Source: Dimargaris cristalligena (Eukaryota). From it: a DNA stretch of 33,507 bases. The DNA lies in assembly GCA_003614675.1 (NCBI GenBank), contig ML002405.1:1-33507 (forward strand), in the 5' to 3' direction. Both the position numbers and the translations under genes were made by a program. Below are positions 2,990 through 33,507 of the stretch, piece by piece. The first letter of the stretch is position 1. Each line of letters opens with the position of its first letter. The notes under the pieces were generated by a model that was not told the DNA's origin, did not search any database, and saw only the letters and a list, made by a program, of their open reading frames with translations.

Positions 2990-3591
2990 GCCGGTATGTT
3001 AATGTCTGGGGAATTACGAGAGGCTCAAAGATGGAAGGGGGGGGGGGTATATGTGTGTAAGGTCTGGCGGGATGACCGGTGGTAGCCAGCTACAATAACG
3101 GAGTAGAGAGTGCGATAGATGAGATAATATAAGCGAGCGTGAATAGTCCGAATTCAAAGGTATATTAGACAAGCCGCAGTCATCCGTGGAAGGGCCAAGT
3201 GGGAGGATGGTGAGCATCACCGTCACCAACCTTCCTTCGTACGTGTGGCTGTTACTCCCTTTGGGGCCATTCTTGTCTCCTTAGGGAAGGAGCTTCGTAA
3301 CGGGCGGCTCAACTTGCTCCATTCGCTAGGCCAGTTGGTTCTGGACCCAGAGACCCTCTCCCCAGCTCAGAATATTGAAAAGAACCTGTAGCTCATTCTC
3401 CCACCAACAACCACCCGCATTCTTTCCCGATCCCCTCCGTACCCCGCGAGTCCCGGTGGCCGCATTTCACCAACTCCGCCTTAGACCAGCTCTTCCCCGA
3501 TTCCGCTCTACTACTACATGAATCCATTTTGACTCAAGTTCCATTCGTAGTTTTATCTAATATTATTTTTCAGGAGTAAATTACCGCCACA

Positions 3592-4525
3592 ATGAGATTA
3601 GTAAGTTGATTGTGCTCGACTGCAACTGGCCTCTAGCCCACTACCTTTGGCAACTAAAGACCCGGTACTTTCGGGACACTCCCATGCTAAACACCTGGCC
3701 TCTACTTGCTTTGGGGCAGAAGCCTTACCAACGGCACTAACACCCGCATTCCCCTCCCTCTACGACATTGCCCCCATGACCCCTCAAATAGATGAAAGCG
3801 AACGAACATGCCGATATCGAGGTCACTTGGGAAGACCAGAAGAATATCAACGCATTTAGCAAACTCAATGTCAAACTCGAGGATGAACAAGAACGCTATT
3901 CCGAACTCAAGGTCAGTACTATTCGCGTCTTTTACCATCTTACCTCCCCTACCCTCGCAAACAAGGCTCGTACCGGGTAGCCACATTACCTCCGGCCCTC
4001 ACTAGATCATCTCCCCGGTTGCTAACCTTTTCCCCAAGACATCCCGTATACCAATCGCTGCATTTACAGTTGGAATTAGAGTACCTGGAGGATCTCGCCA
4101 TGGAACTCGAATTGGCCGATGAGGACGACCCAATCAAGTAAGTAAAGCATCCGGCCAACTGTCCAGGCAGGCTGTACCCGAAAATATAAACCTATAAATT
4201 GTTGTACTTATTTTTTCGGATTTCTTGATCGGCTCACTGGTATCTATCTCAAATCCCCCTCCCATTAACTCATCCGACTTTTGATAATGCACAATACCGT
4301 GTCTAAATTGCATCGCCACCGTCTTCTAGCTTTAAGATCGCCGATGTATTCATCGAGCTGCCCCTCGAGGAGGCTCAGGAAAAAATCCAGACCGAGAAAG
4401 AGCGACTGGAAGAAGAGGTTGAGAAAATCAAGTCCAACCTCAACCAGATGGAAGAGCAGCTGGCCGCCCTCAAAAAGGTACTTTACGGCAAATTCAAGAA
4501 CGCCATCAATCTGGAGAAGGATTAA
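3592..4525 (+). CDS. PFDN4: Prefoldin subunit 4 (Gim3); 4 exons, ~130 aa
   Basis: Exons 3592-3600 (MRL), 3792-3911, 4070-4137, 4330-4525, all GT-AG and in frame (393 nt). Motifs EVTWEDQ..IN.FSKLN, ELELADEDD, LKKVLYGKF..AINLE. Confidence 0.93.
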
Positions 4526-6016
4526 TGGACACGCACCACCATGTGAATTAATACAGTATTATTGGCCCCTTCACCCTAGTGAATGCAATTGGCATCCCAC
4601 CCTTTAATAATAAATACCTAGTTCATTTGGGTGATTGTTTGGCACCATTACAAGACAAAGTGCTCGTAATTGCCTGATTATATAGATCCCCATTTAGGGC
4701 AGGCGGACTTTGAGTTGGACAATACCCATTTGAATCACACGAAATTTAATCTAAGACTAGTATAAGTCCGTACACATGCCGTTTTGTTCCCAAAGCTTCG
4801 CTTGGTCTGTCCATGGGCAATATTATCGAACGAATTGATTGGGAATGTGTGGTCTTGGCAGTAATGATCGGCAGTGTACTAGCGAAAAGTAGATACCATG
4901 CAATTAAATTGATAAAAAATTGACCTAACCAATCGGCTAAATCGGCCTAGTGAAGTACATTCAAATATGGCGAACAGGAATTGGACATATGTTAAAGTCA
5001 ATGGTTAAGTATACGGGCCCAATTCCGAAGACTCTACTGGGATTAGATCAGTAAGAGGTTCTTAATATCTTTTACTCCAGCACCCATTGTCGAGCACAAT
5101 AGTCGCTGAACTGCCCACTAAACGATTGGTGATGGCGAAAATCCCGCATCTTTAACGAGGAATTCGGAAGAAGGATTTTAGCTCCTCCATCCTTGAGATT
5201 GAGCCTATGCCATTGATGCCATACCTACTTATTGTAATGAAATTGTATTTTAGGTAACCATCTATCACATAGACTGGCGTCAAGCAATAGGGGGTAGTTT
5301 GTATTGCGCTATGGCCTAACTCGGCCACCCTGGGGGCGTTCGTTTTCCTTAGTCCCATTTAAATTCTAATGACCACCTATATTGATGCTCGACAATGGAA
5401 CAAGGCGTATTCCGAAATGCTACCAATGGTTTATTAACCGACTCCGATAATACAGCCCCTCTGCATCAAATCGAATGGGTGGCGTCATGTCGTTTTTGTG
5501 CGGCTTTATAGACGGACAACATTGAACACTATTCTCTCCACTCCTGATTACACTACTCATCTCGTACCCCTAAACTCTGCCGAGTATATTAACAGCGATA
5601 TTTCGCCCGATCTCGATAATTTCCGTATTACCGATTTTCCCTATCATATTTTCACAATCATTTCCTAATCCGCGACCCTTCATCCGTCTTCTATATTACT
5701 GTTCGATGGGTTTCTGGGGTGTCCACCTCACCCCCTTATAATCCATACTATATCCACACTAACCCTAATCACCTCATTCGTGACCTCACCTACCTTCCCG
5801 CTAAACTGCCCGCCAGACTATTGCTGGATTTAGTGGCACTACCTGGTTCCCCCGGGCTAACTGAACCCTGTCTACTCCAACTCCACAGCCAAGAAAGCCA
5901 CCGATCCCTTTGCCTGTACGTTTGACATTTCTCCCTCATCACTGAGCTGGACTGAAGTAGCCCCCCCTGAACAGAACCCACGAACCGCATTTCGCTAAAC
6001 CCTCTACGCCGACATA

Positions 6017-6244
6017 ATGTTCCAAAAGGGGGATAAAACTACGGACGGGGTCGAGCCGAAGTCCCCCCGAAAGAAGCTGAATGCCAGGAAAATGAAATCC
6101 ATTAAAATTGCCGGTATAGCCCAGCTGGAGAAGCAAACCAAAAAGCTCCGTCGTATGACTAAGCACGATTGCGAAAAAGAGCCACTGGATGAAATGGCCA
6201 AATTAATTAACGATTTCCAAGCGAGGCTTATTCTGTGCGAGTAG
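6017..6244 (+). CDS. Small basic hypothetical protein (75 aa) or 5' part of a decayed gene
   Basis: ATG follows a CT-rich leader-like region. Lys-rich, helical-looking, with an SPRKK motif. No family recognised. Confidence 0.35.
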   Translation: MFQKGDKTTDGVEPKSPRKKLNARKMKSIKIAGIAQLEKQTKKLRRMTKHDCEKEPLDEMAKLINDFQARLILCE

Positions 6245-8197
6245 AACGACTTCTAATCGAAACAAGCCCGACAGAATATTCCAACCAGAGACCGCCTTTT
6301 CAAAAGGCAGGTCCTTTAACTGTATCATTCTAGTTATAAGATATAACGAGGCGGGACTCATTAGGTTGGGCAGCTGTGGTATTCGCCTACTTCAACAGCA
6401 CATATATGTAGTGCCGCCCAGCACACCATGATTGATTGCTAGTGGTTGATACGATATCCCGCACATGGAGTATCCACCAATTCCATGTTTAGCTTGCTTT
6501 TATCCCGGAAACGCCAATTGTGACAGTTTCCATTGATGGCATTGTTGCGATTAATGACATGTAATTATTCTAGTGTTGATGTATTGTCAACAACCACATC
6601 ATATCGTAGCTTTGCTTTTAATTATTTTGTATTTATTCTGGTAGCGTAATTATAATTTCTACAGTATCCGAGTTTATATCTAAAAGATGGAATCCTGTGA
6701 GGGAAGAGTCAACAGTCGGTTACCCATTGAACTTCATAATTTCAATGCTATTATTTTTTAAAATAAAACCTTTTTGTTTGTACCTGGTATTTTTCAGAGT
6801 ATTTTAGCAATCGTAATCTCTTGTTTCCTACAATTGTACCCTGCATCTAGCACGAGTTCCAGGGCCTCCGAAACTAATCAGTCTGCATTTTTGAGCATAC
6901 CCAAACCAGTAAAGCCGGGACCCTCTGTTGCAGCGTCAAAGCAACCTGAGAAGGAAGGCAATGTCATTTTGCAGCTCCCTAAGCCCAGTACGTCGAAGGT
7001 GACGTCACCCAGCACTTTATATAGAGATAAGCATCATTTCCCAGCCCCGACGCATACCTCTCTAGCACAGGCATGGATGAATGGTCAACGTTGGCGTTAT
7101 AGAGCAGGACAAGGGACGCCCAGCCTAGTTATAATATAAAATAACTATTTACTAAGTCGAAAGTATATGTACAACTTAATCTATCATATAATCTACCGCT
7201 TATTATCCGTTCACAATAGGGTATTATACCATAGGAGATATTACTGGTGACTACTAGAATCCCTGTACCTGGGAAGCGTAGATGGGAAGACACTACTAGG
7301 TGATAAAACATAAAGATAATGAATAATGAAGACAAGACCGCGAATATAATAATAAAACCGTTTGATAAGGGGGTCCGGAATGGCCGAAGAGGAGTAGTAC
7401 CTTCGTTGATTGAATTCGCGCACCCCATTGATAGCAGTTGGCCACGGTTGAAGCTAGAACCCAAAGGTGGGCCAGTTTTAGTCGATAGGGTCTGTCCATG
7501 CAAATATATATTTTAGATAGCCAGAGTATTAGTTGTATAGATAATGTGAAAAGGCTGGTGTAAATATTGGTCGTAAATGGCCTAAGCCCTAGATAATGGC
7601 AATGCAGGATAGAGCGAGGGTGTAGTAACCAAGCCAGTACGTAGTCTTCGAGGGGCGAATGTATCTATTAGAGAGCCCATACGAATTAAAGGCATCATAC
7701 ATTCGATTAAATAGAGTTTATAAAGCTAGAATCTATTATAAATTACCTTAGCAGCCAAGACATCTCACAATCAATAAATCCCCGTGCAATCCCTTAACAG
7801 GTATAATTCAATACGGCTCATTATCCATTTCAGAGCGACAGTCAAATAAACCTAACCACCGAACAGAACCGGACGCATTAACCCTTTTCAACCCGTCAAA
7901 TAATCCGAGTCAATACACATCAGCACTTTTTATTCCAATGACTGGTGAAATCGACGGGCAAGTGGAAAGGAGATTGAAGAAGAAAAAAGGTGATAACGGA
8001 AGAGGGAGTTAGAGAACGGAGACACAACCCTAAATACTAATCCAGCCATATCAGAAATGGGAGGGGGGTTCGAGGAAAGAGAGTTGGGATTTATTATAAG
8101 AGAGGGGAGGGGGAAGTTGTCGACGTGAGGGCACACGAATGAGTTACAGACATCCAAGCATTTTTTACGCGATAGTAGTAATGGCGAATCAAAAAAT

Positions 8198-9261
8198 TTA
8201 CTCCTTCATGGCGGTGGCATCCTCCTCGGTCTTCTGCTTGTCAGCGGACTTGCGTTCCAACAGAGCCTTGCGGTCGTTATCGAGCTTGATCTTGATGATC
8301 TGGACGTTGGAAGGGTGGATGCCAATGGGGGAGGAGGCACCGTTGACCTTCTCGCGGACGACGCGGTCAATGTGGATAATGAACTTCTTGCGGGACACCT
8401 CGGTGACACGACCCTCGCGGCCCTTGTAGGTACCGCGCACAACGACCACCTCGTCGTCCTGACGGATAGGCAGAGTGCGGAACTGATGCTTGGCGCGGAG
8501 CTCCTTGGACAGGGAAGAGCTCATGATCTTTCTGCGCTCACCGCTGGAGGCGGAGAAGTGGGCCTTGCGGCACTTACGCCGGGAAGAGGTAACTTCTGTG
8601 AACGGGTAGATAGAGAGGGAAGGGGCCAATAAATTATAATATATAGATATATATATATATATATGAATATGAGTCTCGTGGGTGAGAATAGGGGAGGGTG
8701 ATTCATAATAATTCACCGTTATAGAGATTCGAATGTCCTTAGTGGTTAGACATTGTAGTATGTCGCGCGATTCCCGCTCGTCCAGAAGAGCCATAGTGGG
8801 CAGATTCCTAGCCCTTGGGTATCCAAGGGAATCCGAGGTCCGCCCATCCTAACCCATTTCCGGCCACGGGGTAGTTCGTTATGGGAGACTGTCGCCAAAC
8901 TCTAACTACACATCAGCCTCGACTGACCGAAACGAAGAGCCGAGAGTGGTTCCGCCTATTCGGCCGGTTGAGTCAAGTGGTAAAGCTAGCCGGGCAGTTC
9001 AACCGTTAAGCCACAGCAACTTGCGCAAAACAGGTGAATAACGGATGGACCTTGCCCGATAAGAGTGTATATGCGGTCGCCTAGCCCACCTACAGGACGG
9101 ATGGATGGATAGATGGATGGATGGGTTCGGAACGGACTACCACGAATCAGAGTGGCCTTTGCCAGCGGGGCGAGGGTTGGACGAGCGGTTGGCGAACGGA
9201 CGGACGGACGGGTGTATGGTCTAACGAGGGCGCGACGGCACTTACTGCGAGCGTAGGCCAT
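8198..9261 (-). CDS. RPL26: 60S ribosomal protein L26 (uL24); 2 exons, ~137 aa
   Basis: Exon1 9261-9246 (ATGGCCTACGCTCGCA|gtaag), 650-nt intron 9245-8596 (cacag|AA), exon2 8595-8198. Protein [21 protein letters not shown]...[14 protein letters not shown]...[13 protein letters not shown]...GIHPSNV. Confidence 0.97.
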
Positions 9262-9562
9262 CGTGGTGGTGTGTATTTTCGTCGACACGAGTGGAAGCAA
9301 ATGTGCAACTAGTTACGGAAAAATACAGGAAGAGAGGGAGCTTAGATTATTCCACTTTGCCATCAATAAAATAGAGCCCTCTCCATCGGATTTCTCTTAC
9401 CAATTTGTTTGCCACCCTCATCTTACTCTCACACACACGCACTCCCTTTCTCTCGCTAGGCTCGGCGCATGGTTTGGTGCCTATCAAAGCCCCACCCACA
9501 CTGCTGCCACATCGCAAACGGTATAGCAAAATCCCATTATAGGCGCGGGTCGAGCTATTATA

Positions 9563-9571
9563 GTCACGTGA
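9563..9571. promoter_or_regulatory. E-box/Cbf1-type palindrome GTCACGTGA in the RPL26 / Nudix-TatD divergent intergenic region
   Basis: TAGTCACGTGATTA near-palindrome about 300 bp upstream of the RPL26 ATG. Cbf1 sites are known in some fungal ribosomal protein promoters. Function here is inferred. Confidence 0.4.
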
Positions 9572-10216
9572 TTATTTCACCTGGATTAATTTGACCCACA
9601 CCTTATATATTTTCCCATTCTCAACTACCAAATCCCAATGAAATCCGGCTTAAATGGCACCAAGTTACCCAGGGTAAGCATACATGAAGATAATCAAAGT
9701 AAAGTTGTGAGAGAGGGTGCTTTATAATATACATAATAGAATGGATGAAGGGCGTTGTATAAGGAGTGAATTAGCTAGTATAGGTTAGAGCTACTAGATA
9801 CTGAACATAGCAAGTAGGAATGCCTGCAAAAGTAGATGCGCAATAGCCATCTAAAGGATTCAAAGATTAAGTAGTGTAAGGAGAGCTATTCGCAAAAATG
9901 AATGGTTTGCAATGGCAGTTAAGGATGTAGTGTTTATTGAATATATATATATATATATAATTTTCGTATCCACCATTTCTAGCATCGTAGTCAGTAGTAT
10001 ATGATTGTGTATATAAATCCCTAGGCATTATTTAATGAGAAATGATCAATTTTCTGATTAGCTCTATCTATTCGGAATTCTATTTCCAATACTAAAATGG
10101 TGTGCCACCAGAGATATTACCTTTCATCCGCAGCCTTATACAGTTAGGCTGTATTGTATTTCTCCCAGGTGCTTTATTGACCTAACTTGCCCTTATTCCC
10201 TCCTAGTAAATGCATC

Positions 10217-11929
10217 ATGTCCGACCCCTCCTCAAACTTTACTTACTCTCCGAATGTAGCCAATCGGTTAGTCCCGGCCACAAACATCCTTGCCTCATTG
10301 TCGAACCATGTCACCCGAATAGTGGTGGGTGTGGCCATTTTCCACCCCACTAACCCGGACCAGGTGCTCATTGTACAGCGTACCGATGCCGAAGAACATT
10401 TCCCAAGCCAATTCGAATTACCCGGTGGTCATATGGAGCCTACCGATGCTACCGTGCTTCATGCCGTCGTTCGCGAGACCCAGGAGGAGACGGGATTGAA
10501 GGTCACCAAAATCACGACTGAGTTTGAACCGTTTGAGTATCAAGTGACTTATAATAACACCAACAACGACCCCGAGACCCAAACCGAACCGGTTGCCCAA
10601 ACCATCACCACCTTGCAATTGAATTTCCGTGTCCAAGTTTACCCCGGCCCTATCAAACTCAACCCAGACGAACACCAAAGCTATGCCTGGGTCGCTCTAG
10701 ACGATATTGACCGCTATCGAATGAGCCCCACCATGGCGCAGGTTGTACGGAATGCTCTTGCCTACAACCATACACTTTCTACATCTGATAGTATCCCGCA
10801 TGTCCCACTCATCGACTGCCACGCTCATTTTATACCGCCGCATATCTCTTTTGCGGATTTACAGACCCAGCTCCAGGAGTGCAAGAAGCAAGATGTTTAT
10901 ATTGTGGCGGTGTCTGAAGGCCTACAGGATGCCCAAGCAATTGCTGAGGTCTGGCAGTCCTTGAGTGAGTCGAATGCTCACTCCAAAAATCCGGGATCCT
11001 CTTCCTTGTGGGCCGTCCCCCGAGAGGCCCACAACCCACAAGATTGGGAGACCTTTGTTCAGTGTTACCGTCAGTACGTGGCCCCCTGCTACGGGATCCA
11101 CCCTGCCCAAAAAAACGAACCATTGGAGACAGCTGAGTCTGTTGTCACCTCTAGCCTTGATCGATCCCAGTACCGCTCGGCCAGATTTATAACCGCCACT
11201 AGCCATCCCGATGGCAATGCCATTGCAGATGACGACTGGCCCCTCATGACCGAATTCATCCGCCGCGAGACTGCCCGAGGCCAGTGCGTTGGAATTGGCG
11301 AAGTGGGTCTTGATTTTTCCCCGCATGTGCTCCGGGGAGACCCCTCCACCGATGAAGGAAAGCGTAGCCAGCGGTCTCTGTTGCAGCACCAGATCCAGCT
11401 GGCCCGGTCCCTGGAGTTGCCACTTAATGTCCACTCCCGCCAGGCCGGAAAGTACGTACTCGAGATACTGGAGGCCGAGCTCAAGCAAGCTAGCCAGCGG
11501 GATGTCGGTGACGCCGATGGACCCCCTACCACTCCGGTCTCGCCCCCCATGGTCCCTGTTCTCTTACATGCCTTCGATGGGAAGCCCAGTGTGGTGCGAC
11601 GGGCCCTCGGCCTAGACTTTGTTTATTTTTCCATTGCCCCCGCCGTCCTTCGGGAGCCCCAGTTTCAACGCCTAGTCGAACTAGTTCCTTTGGATCGCCT
11701 GGTGCTGGAATCGGATAGTCCCGCTTTGGGTGCCGTCAAAGGCGAACCAAGCCACCCCGCCCATATCCGACAGGTGGTGGCGCACATTGCTCGGATTAAA
11801 CAAGTGCCCGAGATTGAAGTGGCCCGCCAGACCACGCGGAATGCATTGCGGATTTTTACCCGGCTGGCTCGTATGTGGCCCCACGTAGCAGCAGCTGTTG
11901 GAATGCCATCAATCTCTGGTCAGACCTAG
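10217..11929 (+). CDS. TATDN3: Nudix hydrolase - TatD (TATDN3-like) nuclease fusion protein, ~570 aa, intronless
   Basis: First ATG at 10217 within the 10187 ORF. N-terminal Nudix box PGGHMEPTD..LHAVVRETQEETGL plus LNPDEHQSYAWV. C-terminal TatD motifs DCHAH, GIHP, GEVGLDFSP, NVHSR, LLHAFDG, LESDSPALG closely match TATDN3. Confidence 0.9.
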   Translation: MSDPSSNFTYSPNVANRLVPATNILASLSNHVTRIVVGVAIFHPTNPDQVLIVQRTDAEEHFPSQFELPGGHMEPTDATVLHAVVRETQEETGLKVTKITTEFEPFEYQVTYNNTNNDPETQTEPVAQTITTLQLNFRVQVYPGPIKLNPDEHQSYAWVALDDIDRYRMSPTMAQVVRNALAYNHTLSTSDSIPHVPLIDCHAHFIPPHISFADLQTQLQECKKQDVYIVAVSEGLQDAQAIAEVWQSLSESNAHSKNPGSSSLWAVPREAHNPQDWETFVQCYRQYVAPCYGIHPAQKNEPLETAESVVTSSLDRSQYRSARFITATSHPDGNAIADDDWPLMTEFIRRETARGQCVGIGEVGLDFSPHVLRGDPSTDEGKRSQRSLLQHQIQLARSLELPLNVHSRQAGKYVLEILEAELKQASQRDVGDADGPPTTPVSPPMVPVLLHAFDGKPSVVRRALGLDFVYFSIAPAVLREPQFQRLVELVPLDRLVLESDSPALGAVKGEPSHPAHIRQVVAHIARIKQVPEIEVARQTTRNALRIFTRLARMWPHVAAAVGMPSISGQT

Positions 11930-12330
11930 TAAACTAATCTGTTCATATTATGGCCCTAACCTTTGTCCTGTGCATCGCGCTATTTATTACCAGTGGCCTG
12001 TGAACCAATTTAGGCAATCAGCCATATTCAGACGGGTGAAAGGGTTTTCTTCTTCCACTTTTCGAGCCATTGATGTTTCTTTTCAAAGCTTCGTATGACT
12101 AAACCAGCTGACCTTGGTTAGTTTCGATTGTATTCTTACCAAACCATACTTCTGAATAAATATATTCAAGCATTCTTTACTTAATTTCATTTAATTATGG
12201 ATGACATATAATTAAGTATCAGGGATTCAATGATACCATCCTCCCTCATCTAATTGTATAATTTTTACAAAATGCATTTAATAGAAGCAATATAAGCATA
12301 GTTGCTACCCATCTCAAGGGATGCTCCTGC

Positions 12331-13200
12331 TTACGGCTTGGTCTCTAGCGACTTCTCGAACTTAGCGAACTCGTCTCCGCCCAACTTGTCCAGCTCCGTT
12401 TCTACTTGTTCAACGGACGTGACTTCGGGGATATAATGCATCAACATATTCTCGATACCGTTCTTCAGCGTGATAACCGACGAGGAACACGTGCGGCAGG
12501 CGCCCTTCAGGGCCAACTGAACGACCCCCGATTCCTCGTTAAAGCCGATATACTCAATATCGCCACCGTCCTCCTGGATCGAGGGGCGAATGCGGGTATC
12601 CAGCAACTCCTTAATCATTTGAACGACTTCCGAGTCATCGGGCAATATTTGGGTGTCGCGCGGGGAAGTGGGCATCTCGTCCTCGGTCTGGAACACAATC
12701 GGTTGACCCGAGGAATAAAAGTCCATGATGGCGCCGTAAATGTCGGGTTTCAACAACTGCCACGGCGTGTCCTGGTCCTTGGTCACGGTAATGAAATCGC
12801 GGCCGAAAAAGACGCCGGTAACACCGTCGACCATGAGGAGAGCCTTGGCCAACGGGGAGGCGCGGGCACTGCGCATGTCCAGGAATTCGAGGGTCCCCGA
12901 TTGACCCTCGGGGAGGACGGCTTCGCCGGGAACGAATTTGAGGGAATCCTGGTTGGGGGTGGTTTCGGTGCGAATGAACATGGACCGACGGGACATTAGA
13001 CTGCCTAATACGGGTCCGGTGAACGGAGAGGGGGAGGAGGAAGTAGGGGCAGTCCAGCCGCGGGTGGGAATGGTGTTGGGGAGGAAGGAGAGAGACCGGG
13101 TCTGGATCAGTCGGCCACCCAGTCCCCGCAAAGGAGCAGCAACCAAGCGGAGAGGAAGCCTGGTGGCGGTGGTAGCGAGCGAGACAAAATGGGAGACCAT
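12331..13200 (-). CDS. NFU1: Mitochondrial Fe-S cluster scaffold/carrier Nfu1, 289 aa
   Basis: Arg/Ser/Leu-rich presequence, MFIRTETTPN..SLKF Nfu_N domain, and ELLDTRIRPSIQEDGGDI...GACRTCSSS..TLKNGIENML NifU domain with CxxC. Single ORF. Confidence 0.97.
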   Translation of the reverse strand: MVSHFVSLATTATRLPLRLVAAPLRGLGGRLIQTRSLSFLPNTIPTRGWTAPTSSSPSPFTGPVLGSLMSRRSMFIRTETTPNQDSLKFVPGEAVLPEGQSGTLEFLDMRSARASPLAKALLMVDGVTGVFFGRDFITVTKDQDTPWQLLKPDIYGAIMDFYSSGQPIVFQTEDEMPTSPRDTQILPDDSEVVQMIKELLDTRIRPSIQEDGGDIEYIGFNEESGVVQLALKGACRTCSSSVITLKNGIENMLMHYIPEVTSVEQVETELDKLGGDEFAKFEKSLETKP

Positions 13201-14618
13201 GGTTTTCTATAGAATGGCAGAGTGACTGCTTGAATCAAAATAGGGAAAGTCGAATATTGGAGCGTAATGAAATATACAATTGTAGGGAAAACCTAATGGT
13301 ACTGGAACGCATGAGAGCGAGGCATTCAGGTACATGGTGGCGTGGCTTTGGGGCAGCGGTTGCTGAACGACCCACTCCTGGCATAATTATCAATTCAATT
13401 CTACCACCCCAGGAATTTCTCCCAGGGCGCAGGAATGTATGCCGTTGGGAGATTTGACCAATAGAGCTCCGTAGTTGATTTACCCACTTAATTTGCTTAG
13501 AAATACGACTGGCCGCCAGCTCCAATTTCTGTCAAATCGGCCTGATACGGGAAAGCTCGCGTAGTACTGTCCTTTTTTAGAATGGGGGGATGTTGGGTAT
13601 GCATCATTATGACCTTTTAAGCCGATTCCTTGAACTATACCGGTAAAAGGTGGTAATATATATGAGGATGATTACCCAAAAAACCCCTCTCTGTCGAGGA
13701 TATGTCGAATATTCTTTGAATGTCCCATTTGGTCGGATTACGATGCGACGGGGGCAACCACGTGCTCTGAATAAATCGGATTAGACGGCACATCGCGTCT
13801 TTGACCAAGTTATTGGTACTGTGCCATTTGGAAGGTTGTATTAGCTGGTTATTCTCTTTTGCCCACCACTTAATACTACCGAGTACACAAGTAAGATGCA
13901 GCTAGTGGCGCATGGGCGTAGATGGGCAAGGTCCATGCTTAATATTCAGGGCAAACGGGCGACCAACGGGCTTGCACCCCGTTTTATTCACCCCAGTTTC
14001 ACGTTCGCACTTCAAGTCCCATTCTACACTTTTGATAAACCTGCTTAACGAACGCTGGGGTTCCTATTTGCCGGAAACTGAACCGAATGAGGCTGATGCA
14101 CCCTGTTCGCATAGTAAACAGAATAGGTGGAGCCGTCACCACTAACAGGAAAAAGAGAACGTCTCTTCCAGAGTAATCCACCTCATCATCCATTGTGGAA
14201 TCATCGAACCTCCGTCACTTCGTCCACACCCGTGATGTCATCGTTCCACCCCACCAACACCCATTTTAGTACAGGCGTATATAATCCACCCCGTCTTCCC
14301 TCATCTAGCAAGTGTATAATAGCCGGTCTATTCCTTCAATTCCTTTTACTTTGCCCCTCTGTATTATATTTTGTCATTTATAATATCCATGGCCCAATTC
14401 ACTCAAATACATCATCTTTGAACTAGTTTCCTTTGCCCCGCTGGTTCCACCAGCCACGTTGGGCATTAATACCTATCCATCAACCTAGAAAGTGGCAGTT
14501 TAAATTTATCTCACTCGTATTTCCGCTTCTTATTGTCAACGCATATCACAATACACCTGGGCCATACCCAGTCAAACACCCCAGTATCCTATATTTTCCC
14601 ATACAATTGCAGTCGACC

Positions 14619-15341
14619 ATGTACCTGGGGTTCCCCTTTATCCACCTGGGGGTATGGATTTTCCTCCTGGGCCGCCTTGCCGCCTCACCTCTTCCCACAG
14701 CCAGTCCAACAGCTTCCTCCACCGAGTCGGTGCACCCCACGACTGATTCTGCAAGAAGTTTACTCGGGACGCCCATGATCCTGTACAGTTACCACGTGGC
14801 CTACGAGAGCAGCACCCGCGGTCCCCAGTCCGTGGCCCTCTATGACTGCGAGGGAACCCTCCTCGCCCATTCGACCGCCGACTTCGCCCGAAACCTCGTC
14901 AAACAAGGCTCGGGCCGCCTATTCGACGGTCGTTACATCAACCAGTCCTACTGCACCTGCGACTCTGACCAATATAACTGTTTCAGTCTTGTGGACGGAC
15001 CTTTGGGCTCGGGCGGCCAAACCCTGAACTCCTACACGAGTGCCAGCTCGGACTTGTATCCCATCGGCACGACCCTCTGGATAACCGAATTGGCGGACCA
15101 GCTCCTTGCCAATGGCCAACACCACTCCGGGTGTGTGCGGGTGGACGATTCGTACGATGAACCCCATTCGGGTATTCTGAGCCTGTTTATCGGTCGGGAA
15201 ATTAGCGGTCAGTTTTTGATGAAGGAACTGCAGTCGGATTCGACCCCGATTGTCCATGCTCAAGTGGCCGACTGTCAACCCCGGGAGTATACAGACCGCT
15301 ACTTGCGCCCCATCGCCTTACGCTACCTACTTTTCAAATAG
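14619..15341 (+). CDS. Secreted MltA/3D-domain-like (double-psi barrel) protein, paralog 1, 240 aa
   Basis: ATG 14619, signal-peptide-like MYLGFPFIHLGVWIFLLGRLAA, S/T-rich linker, then QGSGRL, SASSDLYPIGTTL, GCVRVDD and six Cys. Clear paralog of 17766-18551. Confidence 0.75.
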   Translation: MYLGFPFIHLGVWIFLLGRLAASPLPTASPTASSTESVHPTTDSARSLLGTPMILYSYHVAYESSTRGPQSVALYDCEGTLLAHSTADFARNLVKQGSGRLFDGRYINQSYCTCDSDQYNCFSLVDGPLGSGGQTLNSYTSASSDLYPIGTTLWITELADQLLANGQHHSGCVRVDDSYDEPHSGILSLFIGREISGQFLMKELQSDSTPIVHAQVADCQPREYTDRYLRPIALRYLLFK

Positions 15342-17765: not shown

Positions 17766-18551
17766 ATGGTCCTATGTGGTGTTTGGGGGATTTTCCTCTT
17801 CGTTTACTTAATCGTACTCACCCGGGCCGATCCGTTTTTTAACTCCACGACCCTCACTAACAGCCGGAACCCCTCTTTTCCCGCCGAACTACAACCATTG
17901 CCGCCGTCCACACTGGCGGCCACCCGTACCACGCGAAGGATTCGGGCGGTTGACATCGTCCTCAAATACGATGCCAGTAAGGACGGTACCCACGAACTGA
18001 TTTTCAGTTCGTACAATGTGGCCTACGAAAGTCGCACCCGGGGCACCCGCGATACGTATGTGCGGGACTGCCAAGGTCAACCGCTTGTCAAGGTCACCCA
18101 CCAATTCGCCGAGGATCTTTTGCGCCAGGGGTCGGGGCGACTCCTGACGGGGCAGTACATGAACATTGGGGACTGTCTCTGCGAGAATAACTTCAGCTGC
18201 TTCATGTTCACCGCAGCGGCCATGGGTATCGGGGGCGCGCAACTCCAGGCTTTTGTGAGTGTGTCGTCGGACGTGTACCCGTTGGGCACTTATTTGATGG
18301 TCGAGGAACTCAAGGGTCTTTTACTGCCCAATGAGGAGCACCACGACGGTTGCGTGCGGGTCGATGATTATTACGAAGACTCGATTCTGGGCAACTTGAC
18401 GCTGTTCGTCGATAAGAAGGGCAACGATGATTTTATCCGGGGCTTATTGCACAATGATAATGTCCGCGCTACCCCTTCTGACTGCAAACCCAAACACTAC
18501 ACGGATCGTTATTTGTTTCCCATTTCGATGGTGCTCTTCAAATTTACCTAA
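17766..18551 (+). CDS. Secreted MltA/3D-domain-like protein, paralog 2, 261 aa
   Basis: ATG 17766, signal-peptide-like MVLCGVWGIFLFVYLIVLTRA|DP, then VAYES.TRG, QGSGRL, SVSSDVYPLGT, HHDGCVRVDD, YTDRYL.PI. Same six-Cys pattern as paralog 1. Confidence 0.75.
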   Translation: MVLCGVWGIFLFVYLIVLTRADPFFNSTTLTNSRNPSFPAELQPLPPSTLAATRTTRRIRAVDIVLKYDASKDGTHELIFSSYNVAYESRTRGTRDTYVRDCQGQPLVKVTHQFAEDLLRQGSGRLLTGQYMNIGDCLCENNFSCFMFTAAAMGIGGAQLQAFVSVSSDVYPLGTYLMVEELKGLLLPNEEHHDGCVRVDDYYEDSILGNLTLFVDKKGNDDFIRGLLHNDNVRATPSDCKPKHYTDRYLFPISMVLFKFT

Positions 18552-32137: not shown

Positions 32138-33507
32138 TTAATGCCGAGCCCCGTCGGCATAGGAGACAAACAGATCGCCCATGTCATCGTCTTCGGGGAA
32201 TATGAAATCTTCAGGCAAACCCAGGATGGGATACAAAGCTGAAATGTCATCATATTTGGCAAACACGTTTACCAATTGCTTGTCGCCGATAGCCGTCTTT
32301 AGGGTATAACACAGTCCCCTCAATTTTGTTAGTCTTTCCTGTTCAGCCTGTTTCATCGATTTGACCGGCTTGACTGACTCGCAATCCACCGGGTCCATCA
32401 TCGTCGTGACGGCCGCCTCCTGATCCATAAACAGGGCCCAGTGCGCCCGTTTAATGATGAAGGTCCACCAATGCACCTGGGGCATTCCAAGAAGGTCCAT
32501 AATCTCCTGCGCCAGCTCAAAGCGATTGTACAACAGCAGGTTGCTCGCCAGGTCCGGCCAGAGCCGCAATCCCCAGAATTCCGGCCAGGTGACTATTTCA
32601 TTCAGCGTTTGGAAGCGGCAGGTGGTGCTCATGGTTTGTTTCCGCCTGCGGGCGGATAATTTCCTCGGGGTGGCCATCATGCGCCTCTGCTCGAGGGTAA
32701 ATCCGCCAAACGCCTTACGAATAAAACCCATCGCCACTTCGGGACGCTCGCCCAAAAGAATACTCAATAGATTCAGAGATTGCCGACCTTTTGACCGGTC
32801 CAGCGTGCCCACAGTATAGTTCAAAACCCGCTGCCCTTGGTTTCCCCACTGGCCATAAAAACCAATGTCGTTGACGAACGCTAAATGGGACATATAATTG
32901 CCCGGGTCGGTTTTGATGATACGCTGCACCTTCTCGAATTCGGCGTCATCTAGGGTGTCATCAATCAGAATATCCAATAACGTCTCCATCTATATATATA
33001 TATATATATATATAAAGGGTAGGTATATTAAAGGTTGGTCATTTCAGGCCCATAGAGTTTCGTTAATTTCAAGCACACTCTATAAATATACACTCAAATA
33101 AATATCTAAGAATATACGTTGGCCAGACCCATACATCCATTCGACCATCTATCCATTAATGGGTACTATTTACATTGTCTCTAAATTGGGAGCATAAGGT
33201 CGTTTTGCCCAGGCCAGTACTCTCGACCGGCTTTCTTCTTGGTATGGGAATAATCTTGCGCGGTTCGCCCGGCAGAGGGCCGATGCCTCCCATACTACCG
33301 CTGGGCGAATTTGCATTAGCAATTGGGTCCATATTGCCGTTATCGTTATCGTTATCGTTATCGTCGTCGTCGTCGTCGTCGTCGTCGTCATCGCCCAAGG
33401 TCATGGCCCACCTATTGCGTTTCAGGCTCGGCCCGGAGCCGGGCTTTACCAGATCCCCTCCGCTCTTCTGGCTGAAGTCGGTGGCCCCGCTTGCTTCCGA
33501 TTGGCCA
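32138..33507 (-). CDS. Hypothetical (orphan) protein, 5'-partial; at least 2 exons
   Basis: The frame is open from the window edge to 33174 (..SLKRNRWAMTLG-polyD/DN..CSQFRDN|gtaaat). Intron 33173-32990 (tag|ATG), then a 283-codon exon 32989-32138 in the same phase. No family recognised. Confidence 0.75.
33339..33393 (-). repeat. Coding (GAC)n/(GATAAC)n repeat encoding a poly-Asp/Asp-Asn tract
   Basis: Seen directly. Confidence 0.85.

Follow-up and report, generated by a model that had tools for sequence, protein, structure and literature searches.

The TATDN3 clade of TatD nucleases (Group II) is defined by an N-terminal HxH motif, and the human enzyme is described as both a 3′–5′ exonuclease on single-stranded DNA and an AP endonuclease on double-stranded DNA, with Glu107 and Asp218 needed for both activities (PMC10085689). 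TATDN2 and TATDN3 have been reported in early-diverging fungi (PMC10085689), so that a TATDN3 gene is expected in Dimargaris cristalligena, whose order, the Dimargaritales, consists of parasites of other fungi (PMC9866270). Among Nudix hydrolases, MutT relies on Asn119 for recognition of, and affinity for, 8-oxoguanine (PMC4338371).

Here we describe a D. cristalligena gene in which a Nudix domain and a TATDN3-type nuclease share one reading frame, an apparently undescribed domain architecture built from two known families. The gene lies in a window of 33,507 nucleotides, the whole stretch of DNA analysed. A preliminary description of this window had reported one uninterrupted frame of 570 codons, and translation confirmed it: positions 10217–11929 (+) hold 570 codons and a stop. 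Pfam assigned NUDIX (PF00293) to residues 37–178 (E 7.8e-21; 74.9 bits against a cut-off of 21.1) and TatD_DNase to residues 199–547 (E 5e-40), both far over the cut-off. Its neighbours are housekeeping genes of eukaryotic type, an intron-containing rpl26 in divergent orientation and NFU1 in convergent orientation. Its features are as follows.

10217..11929 (+): Nudix–TATDN3 fusion ORF, a single frame with no intron needed; identical protein annotated in another assembly
10217..10768 (+): Nudix domain (PF00293), residues 1–184; 37–47% identity to 17 free homologues
10424..10498 (+): variant Nudix box, residues 70–94; six positions (G71, D77, R86, E87, E90, E91) identical in 18/18 family members
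10733..10735 (+): M173 codon, for a residue that is invariant in this Nudix family and aligns with MutT Asn119; as an in-frame ATG with a strong initiation context, a possible internal start for a TatD-only form
10766..10807 (+): linker, residues 184–197, with AT-rich third codon positions and a silent strain difference at 10777
10800..10802 (+): out-of-frame ATG, located where sister TATDN3 genes start
10808..11875 (+): TATDN3-type TatD TIM barrel, residues 198–553; HxH (202/204), E362, H406, H451, E498, D500

Four sequencing runs were compared with the contig over positions 7900–13600; two of them (X1 and X2) may be the source of the assembly itself, and all are DNA, with the rpl26 intron present unspliced. 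X1 and X2 each match without a difference in a single contig, X3 covers the region in pieces, and X5—a run of another study—crosses all 5.7 kb in a single contig and differs there at 28 letters. The sole indel listed for X5 lies at 13347, outside the ORF, and the ORF itself has no listed indel or joint, in a comparison that skipped rows at three simple repeats, all of them outside the ORF. Three differences fall within the ORF, at 10243, 10777 (in the linker) and 11002, and all three are silent; with about 24% of random changes silent, this has a probability of ~0.014 under a uniform-mutation null, although the test is noisy, with n=3 SNPs and an adjoining NFU1 gene (12331–13200, −) in which three of the four sites that differ between the two isolates change a residue.

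Another assembly carries, on a 50,607-base contig, an annotated protein identical over all 570 aa, whereas the annotation of the present contig holds the Nudix part alone, as a 172-aa partial protein, a split that our reading corrects. Misassembly or sequencing error is very unlikely, because a run of a second study spans the frame and an identical protein occurs in another assembly; misassembly, which the preliminary description had named as a possible undoing of the fusion, thus largely falls away. The fusion frame is present in two isolates. Each half found one match in the assembly (30.7 Mb, 2,220 contigs), counts that are lower bounds; it therefore looks as if the fused gene stands in for both free genes, and it seems to be the only copy of each in this assembly. 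Further TatD matches, which the fusion protein did not match, sit on three other contigs. Two more TatD genes that look alike were seen on contigs C393 (L015) and C1235 (L016/L017); C1235 is a short contig, and its copy could be a paralogue or could derive from a different organism.

Immediately 5′ of the start codon, positions 10176–10216 (+) contain a branch-point-like CTAAC, a pyrimidine tract and TAG, which suggests an intron in the 5′ leader of the gene. An out-of-frame ATG at 10210, before M1, opens a 47-codon overlapping frame.

The TatD half begins with the Group II HxH motif (DCHAH, residues 200–204) and not with (G/A)xN. Its metal-binding and catalytic motifs had been called intact, and so they proved: of the 47 aligned TatD sequences, at least 46 retain each of H202, H204, H295, E362, H406, H451, E498 and D500, with E362 and D500, which were matched by motif to Glu107 and Asp218 of the human enzyme (2y1h), present in all 47. 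The earlier assignment to the TATDN3 type was upheld by a PDB sequence search, in which human TATDN3 (2y1h) was the best match (E 9.5e-37) and TATDN1 reached E 3e-4; judged by sequence, neither TATDN1 nor bacterial TatD is as close to this half as TATDN3. A tree of TATDN3-like rows only, which speaks to nearest kin and not to clade membership, grouped it with TATDN3 from Dimargaritales and Zoopagales. By analogy, it would act like human TATDN3, as a 3′–5′ exonuclease on single-stranded DNA and an AP endonuclease on double-stranded DNA. We considered and rejected QatD of the QatABCD anti-phage system, since NF041926 gave 73.7 bits against 230 and the neighbours are rpl26 and NFU1 on a fungal contig.

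The preliminary description had also seen a complete Nudix domain. That domain is present, with the RE and EE residues of its box (R86, E87, E90 and E91) kept, but the box itself is a family-wide variant rather than the textbook one: G71-X5-D77-X8-RE-T-Q-EE-T-G-L against GX5EX7REUXEEXGU, with Asp for the first Glu, one extra residue (X8) and Thr at the U position. The Asp is common to 18/18 aligned family members, and the variant is probably active. The family is mostly fungal, with free members of ~160–255 aa that have the motifs QxNF, EHQ and a Met-helix in common with the fusion; we know of no substrate for it. Neither half looks decayed: as judged by leave-one-out profiles, the Nudix half ranked 1/18 and the TatD half 24/47, ranks biased by the choice of homologues for their likeness to the query.

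The best solved relatives of the Nudix family profile are of the MutT, NudG, NudI and MutT2 types, at E 2.4e-12 and weaker (low scores). A profile alignment to 4v14 places Met173, invariant in 18/18 members, in the column of MutT Asn119, and the NCBIfam mutT equivalog TIGR00586 scored 37 bits against a cut-off of 97.9; on both counts we rejected the Nudix half as a MutT-type 8-oxo-dGTPase. It is probably an NTP/dNTP-pyrophosphatase-like enzyme, yet not a MutT. In a Nudix tree the query fell in no starred group, which supports neither vertical descent nor transfer of this half, and the named matches included no Nudix orthologue from another Dimargaritales species.

A structural model of the fusion gave residues 11–180 at block pLDDT 73–94, and a fold search with this part returned NudI (3n77) at TM 0.81 by target, with only 22–24% identity. 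The Nudix domain and the C-terminal half of TatD were confident, whereas the N-terminal half of TatD was mostly at pLDDT <60 with an rmsd of ~24 Å to 2y1h. The model was built on an alignment with the Nudix and TatD rows overlaid, making it unreliable between domains and silent on their packing; a single-sequence model reached a mean pLDDT of 34.

Between the two domains lies YNHTLSTSDSIPH (residues 184–196), the linker of about 13 residues that was described at the outset. As had also been reported, no separate Met stands directly before DCHAH: the only in-frame Met codons after M1 are M73, M169 and M173, all within the Nudix fold. The last helix of the Nudix family ends near residue 184, where the linker begins, and 5 of the 17 free homologues end 4–5 residues past the A180 column, the rest within 7–32. 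Third codon positions are G or C in 3 of 13 codons at residues 185–197, against ~0.6 in both domains (binomial 0.009, a test chosen post hoc), and values of three or fewer occur in only five of the 558 13-codon windows of the ORF, of which three fall on the linker and two on the C-terminal tail. This codon use points to the linker as probably former non-coding spacer DNA between two neighbouring genes, although a relaxed linker would show something similar. The ATG at 10800 is possibly, on weak grounds, a relic of the old TATDN3 start codon, the chance of such an ATG in a zone of 12–24 bases being 14–27%, and Tyr184 (TAC) is at most suggestive of a replaced Nudix stop. We found no GTAAG-type intron donor near the junction; the one candidate, GTACGG at 10745, lacks a branch point at the proper distance, and splicing there would break the TatD frame.

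Conservation in sister species, the check that the preliminary description had proposed, did not emerge: 7/7 TATDN3 sequences from five other Dimargaritales species are stand-alone, with DxHxH at residue 7 or 8 rather than at residue 200, in a comparison of annotated proteins. The TATDN3 proteins of the outgroups Thamnocephalis, Ramicandelaber and Ambispora are also free, and the fusion is a derived state because outgroup and sister proteins are free.

Wider searches gave a similar picture. In a full-length search that scored 8,000 candidates, 45 matched but no match combined the two Pfam families, and an exhaustive search of 1.84 billion representatives yielded 6,243 matches, the best 150 of which were considered. 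The 187 other retrieved proteins divide into 24 that match the Nudix half and 163 that match the TatD half, without overlap; likewise, 17 proteins of 444–2,000 aa matched the Nudix profile, none of them with TatD. Cluster-level searches may hide fusions, the 570-aa protein itself being filed under a 172-aa representative. A conserved fusion of the Rosetta-stone type was seen in 0/7 sister orthologues, 0/187 proteins and 0/17 long Nudix relatives. Metagenomes contributed 80 distant TatD loci (best-segment identity 24–44%), none near enough for synteny, and the Nudix profile matched at one of them, in a separate frame on the opposite strand. As far as titles and the opening lines of abstracts go, the papers retrieved mention no Nudix–TatD fusion and nothing specific on fungal gene fusion. 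The claim that the architecture is undescribed thus holds for the other proteins retrieved and for this portion of the literature, and the fusion looks young and narrow, so far confined to one species.

We regard it as fairly likely that this is a recent, lineage-limited fusion of two genes, yielding one mRNA and one protein in which two independently working enzymes share a tether. Two single-copy housekeeping genes, Nudix and TATDN3, would have stood head to tail; loss of the Nudix stop and the TATDN3 start would have turned ~13 codons of former spacer DNA into a flexible tether, and a single mRNA read from M1 would give a single 570-aa protein. The TatD barrel would bind two metals and act like human TATDN3, and the Nudix domain would split a nucleotide pyrophosphate bond, most likely of an NTP or dNTP in the manner of NudI or MutT2, without the 8-oxoguanine specificity of MutT. 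We infer that the halves work independently and that the fusion persists through tolerance rather than through any coupling of the reactions.

One frame might instead give two products, with an internal promoter or leaky scanning allowing a TatD-only protein to start at M173 (or M169) with ~25 extra residues, so that the full fusion would be one isoform or a minor one; we judge this unlikely. The context of M173 (cccaccATGG) resembles those at the starts of other window genes (tccaccATGG, aaaaccATGG) and is better than that of M1 (tgcatcATGT), which is also preceded by the out-of-frame ATG at 10210. However, M173 is a structural residue shared by 18/18 family members, which is reason enough for its presence, and the M169 and M173 forms are both absent from the protein collection searched. 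The contig’s own annotation does give the Nudix part separately, as a partial protein, but that 172-aa model has no stop and drops 11 loop residues, as is typical of a homology-built model; and because no stop closes the Nudix frame, every mRNA that starts at M1 and continues yields the fusion.

Improbable, in our estimation, is a coupled enzyme under selection of the ‘sanitise-and-repair’ kind advanced in the preliminary description; in this version the nuclease would bring the Nudix domain to damaged DNA, there to clear damaged dNTPs or to strip a pyrophosphate-linked adduct such as ADP-ribose off a DNA end ahead of TatD trimming. Both active sites are intact, both families serve nucleotide or DNA housekeeping, and the best solved relatives of the Nudix profile are MutT, NudG and NudI types. 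A protein-language-model search also returned, as leads only, bacterial clusters in which Nudix is fused to metal-dependent hydrolases of other families: Amidohydro_2+NUDIX in 22% of 77 members (score 0.88) and CpsB/CapC+NUDIX in 83% of 54 members (score 0.80). Against coupling, the fusion was found in one species only and the architecture is not conserved among annotated proteins of sister species, which leaves the proposal unsupported; just 1/80 metagenomic TatD loci has a Nudix match, and that one on the opposite strand. Moreover, an exonuclease releases dNMPs, which are products and not substrates of an NTP pyrophosphatase. Met173 at the MutT Asn119 position gives no indication of the suggested sanitising of oxidised dGTP. 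Removal of a 5′ cap ahead of the nuclease, also suggested, would feed no TATDN3 substrate, because caps sit at RNA 5′ ends and TATDN3 acts on DNA 3′ ends and AP sites (PMC10085689).

An artefact—misassembly, a sequencing error deleting a stop, an unrecognised intron or a decayed half—might be suspected in a fragmented assembly with one annotation that splits the gene, but is highly improbable given three runs that span the locus in single contigs, one of them from a second study without a listed indel in the ORF, the lack of a suitable intron donor near the junction and two domains that score intact.

Read as a recent fusion of independently working enzymes, the gene is a clean example of its kind: both housekeeping enzymes are intact, and the join between them is still visible as a scar, a short linker whose codon use resembles that of non-coding DNA. 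A fusion in one species is weak evidence for a functional Nudix–TATDN3 link. If the halves were coupled, they would offer an initial clue to the function of a widespread but unstudied fungal Nudix family, and TATDN3, an enzyme with a poorly known role in the cell, would gain its first partner activity. We give little credence to the bolder proposal of a young fusion, fixed in a mycoparasite, in which TATDN3 carries an orphan Nudix domain to DNA damage and both act in sequence, Nudix on damaged dNTPs or on pyrophosphate-linked adducts at ends and TatD by trimming or incision; if true, it would be the first Nudix–TatD enzyme and would bring a DNA-repair role to an uncharacterised fungal Nudix family.

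Several other observations were made in the course of this work. Within the window, the ORFs at 14619–15341 (+) and 17766–18551 (+) are tandem paralogues (41% identical over 222 residues) with signal-peptide-like hydrophobic N-termini and no significant Pfam match; their Asp-rich C-terminal part may resemble 3D/RlpA-like barrels. A 283-codon ORF at 32138–32989 (−) has no Pfam match at E up to 10. On contig C680 of the same assembly, positions 3000–10000 hold intronless, close-packed ORFs for PCNA, Nudix and DUF5832, the Nudix ORF (3088–4038, −; L101) with an N-terminal zinc-knuckle-like stretch. These families (PCNA, zinc-knuckle-like Nudix, DUF5832) have links to viruses, and the region has the look of a stretch of giant-virus (Nucleocytoviricota) DNA within the assembly. 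For D. cristalligena, a major capsid gene of giant-virus origin has been reported before (PMC13533422).

Set beside known systems, the fusion has the metal-site residues of human TATDN3 (2y1h), namely HxH, Glu, His, His and ExD, together with the clade motifs GEVGLDFSP, VHSR, LHAFDG and ESDSPALG. Unlike the human protein, it carries 196 N-terminal residues of Nudix domain and linker, and its loops contain long insertions such as those of the other orthologues from Dimargaritales. The nearest relatives of the TatD half are the TATDN3 proteins of Dimargaris verticillata, D. xerosporica, Tieghemiomyces parasiticus, Dispira parvispora and D. simplex (42–46% identity), with which it was grouped in the tree at 88/85, not starred; those proteins differ from the fusion in starting 6–7 residues before the Asp of DxHxH and in having no Nudix domain. 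The Nudix half shares 37–47% identity and the same box variant with a fungal ‘NUDIX hydrolase domain-like’ family (Heliocybe, Rickenella, Mycena, Absidia, Gongronella, Coemansia, Ramicandelaber, Cryptococcus), the 17 aligned members of which are free and, unlike the fusion, never joined to TatD. The best solved relatives of that family’s profile are the NTP pyrophosphohydrolases MutT, NudG, NudI and MutT2, from which the fusion differs in the Asp for the first Glu and the extra residue of its box and in the Met at the Asn119 position.
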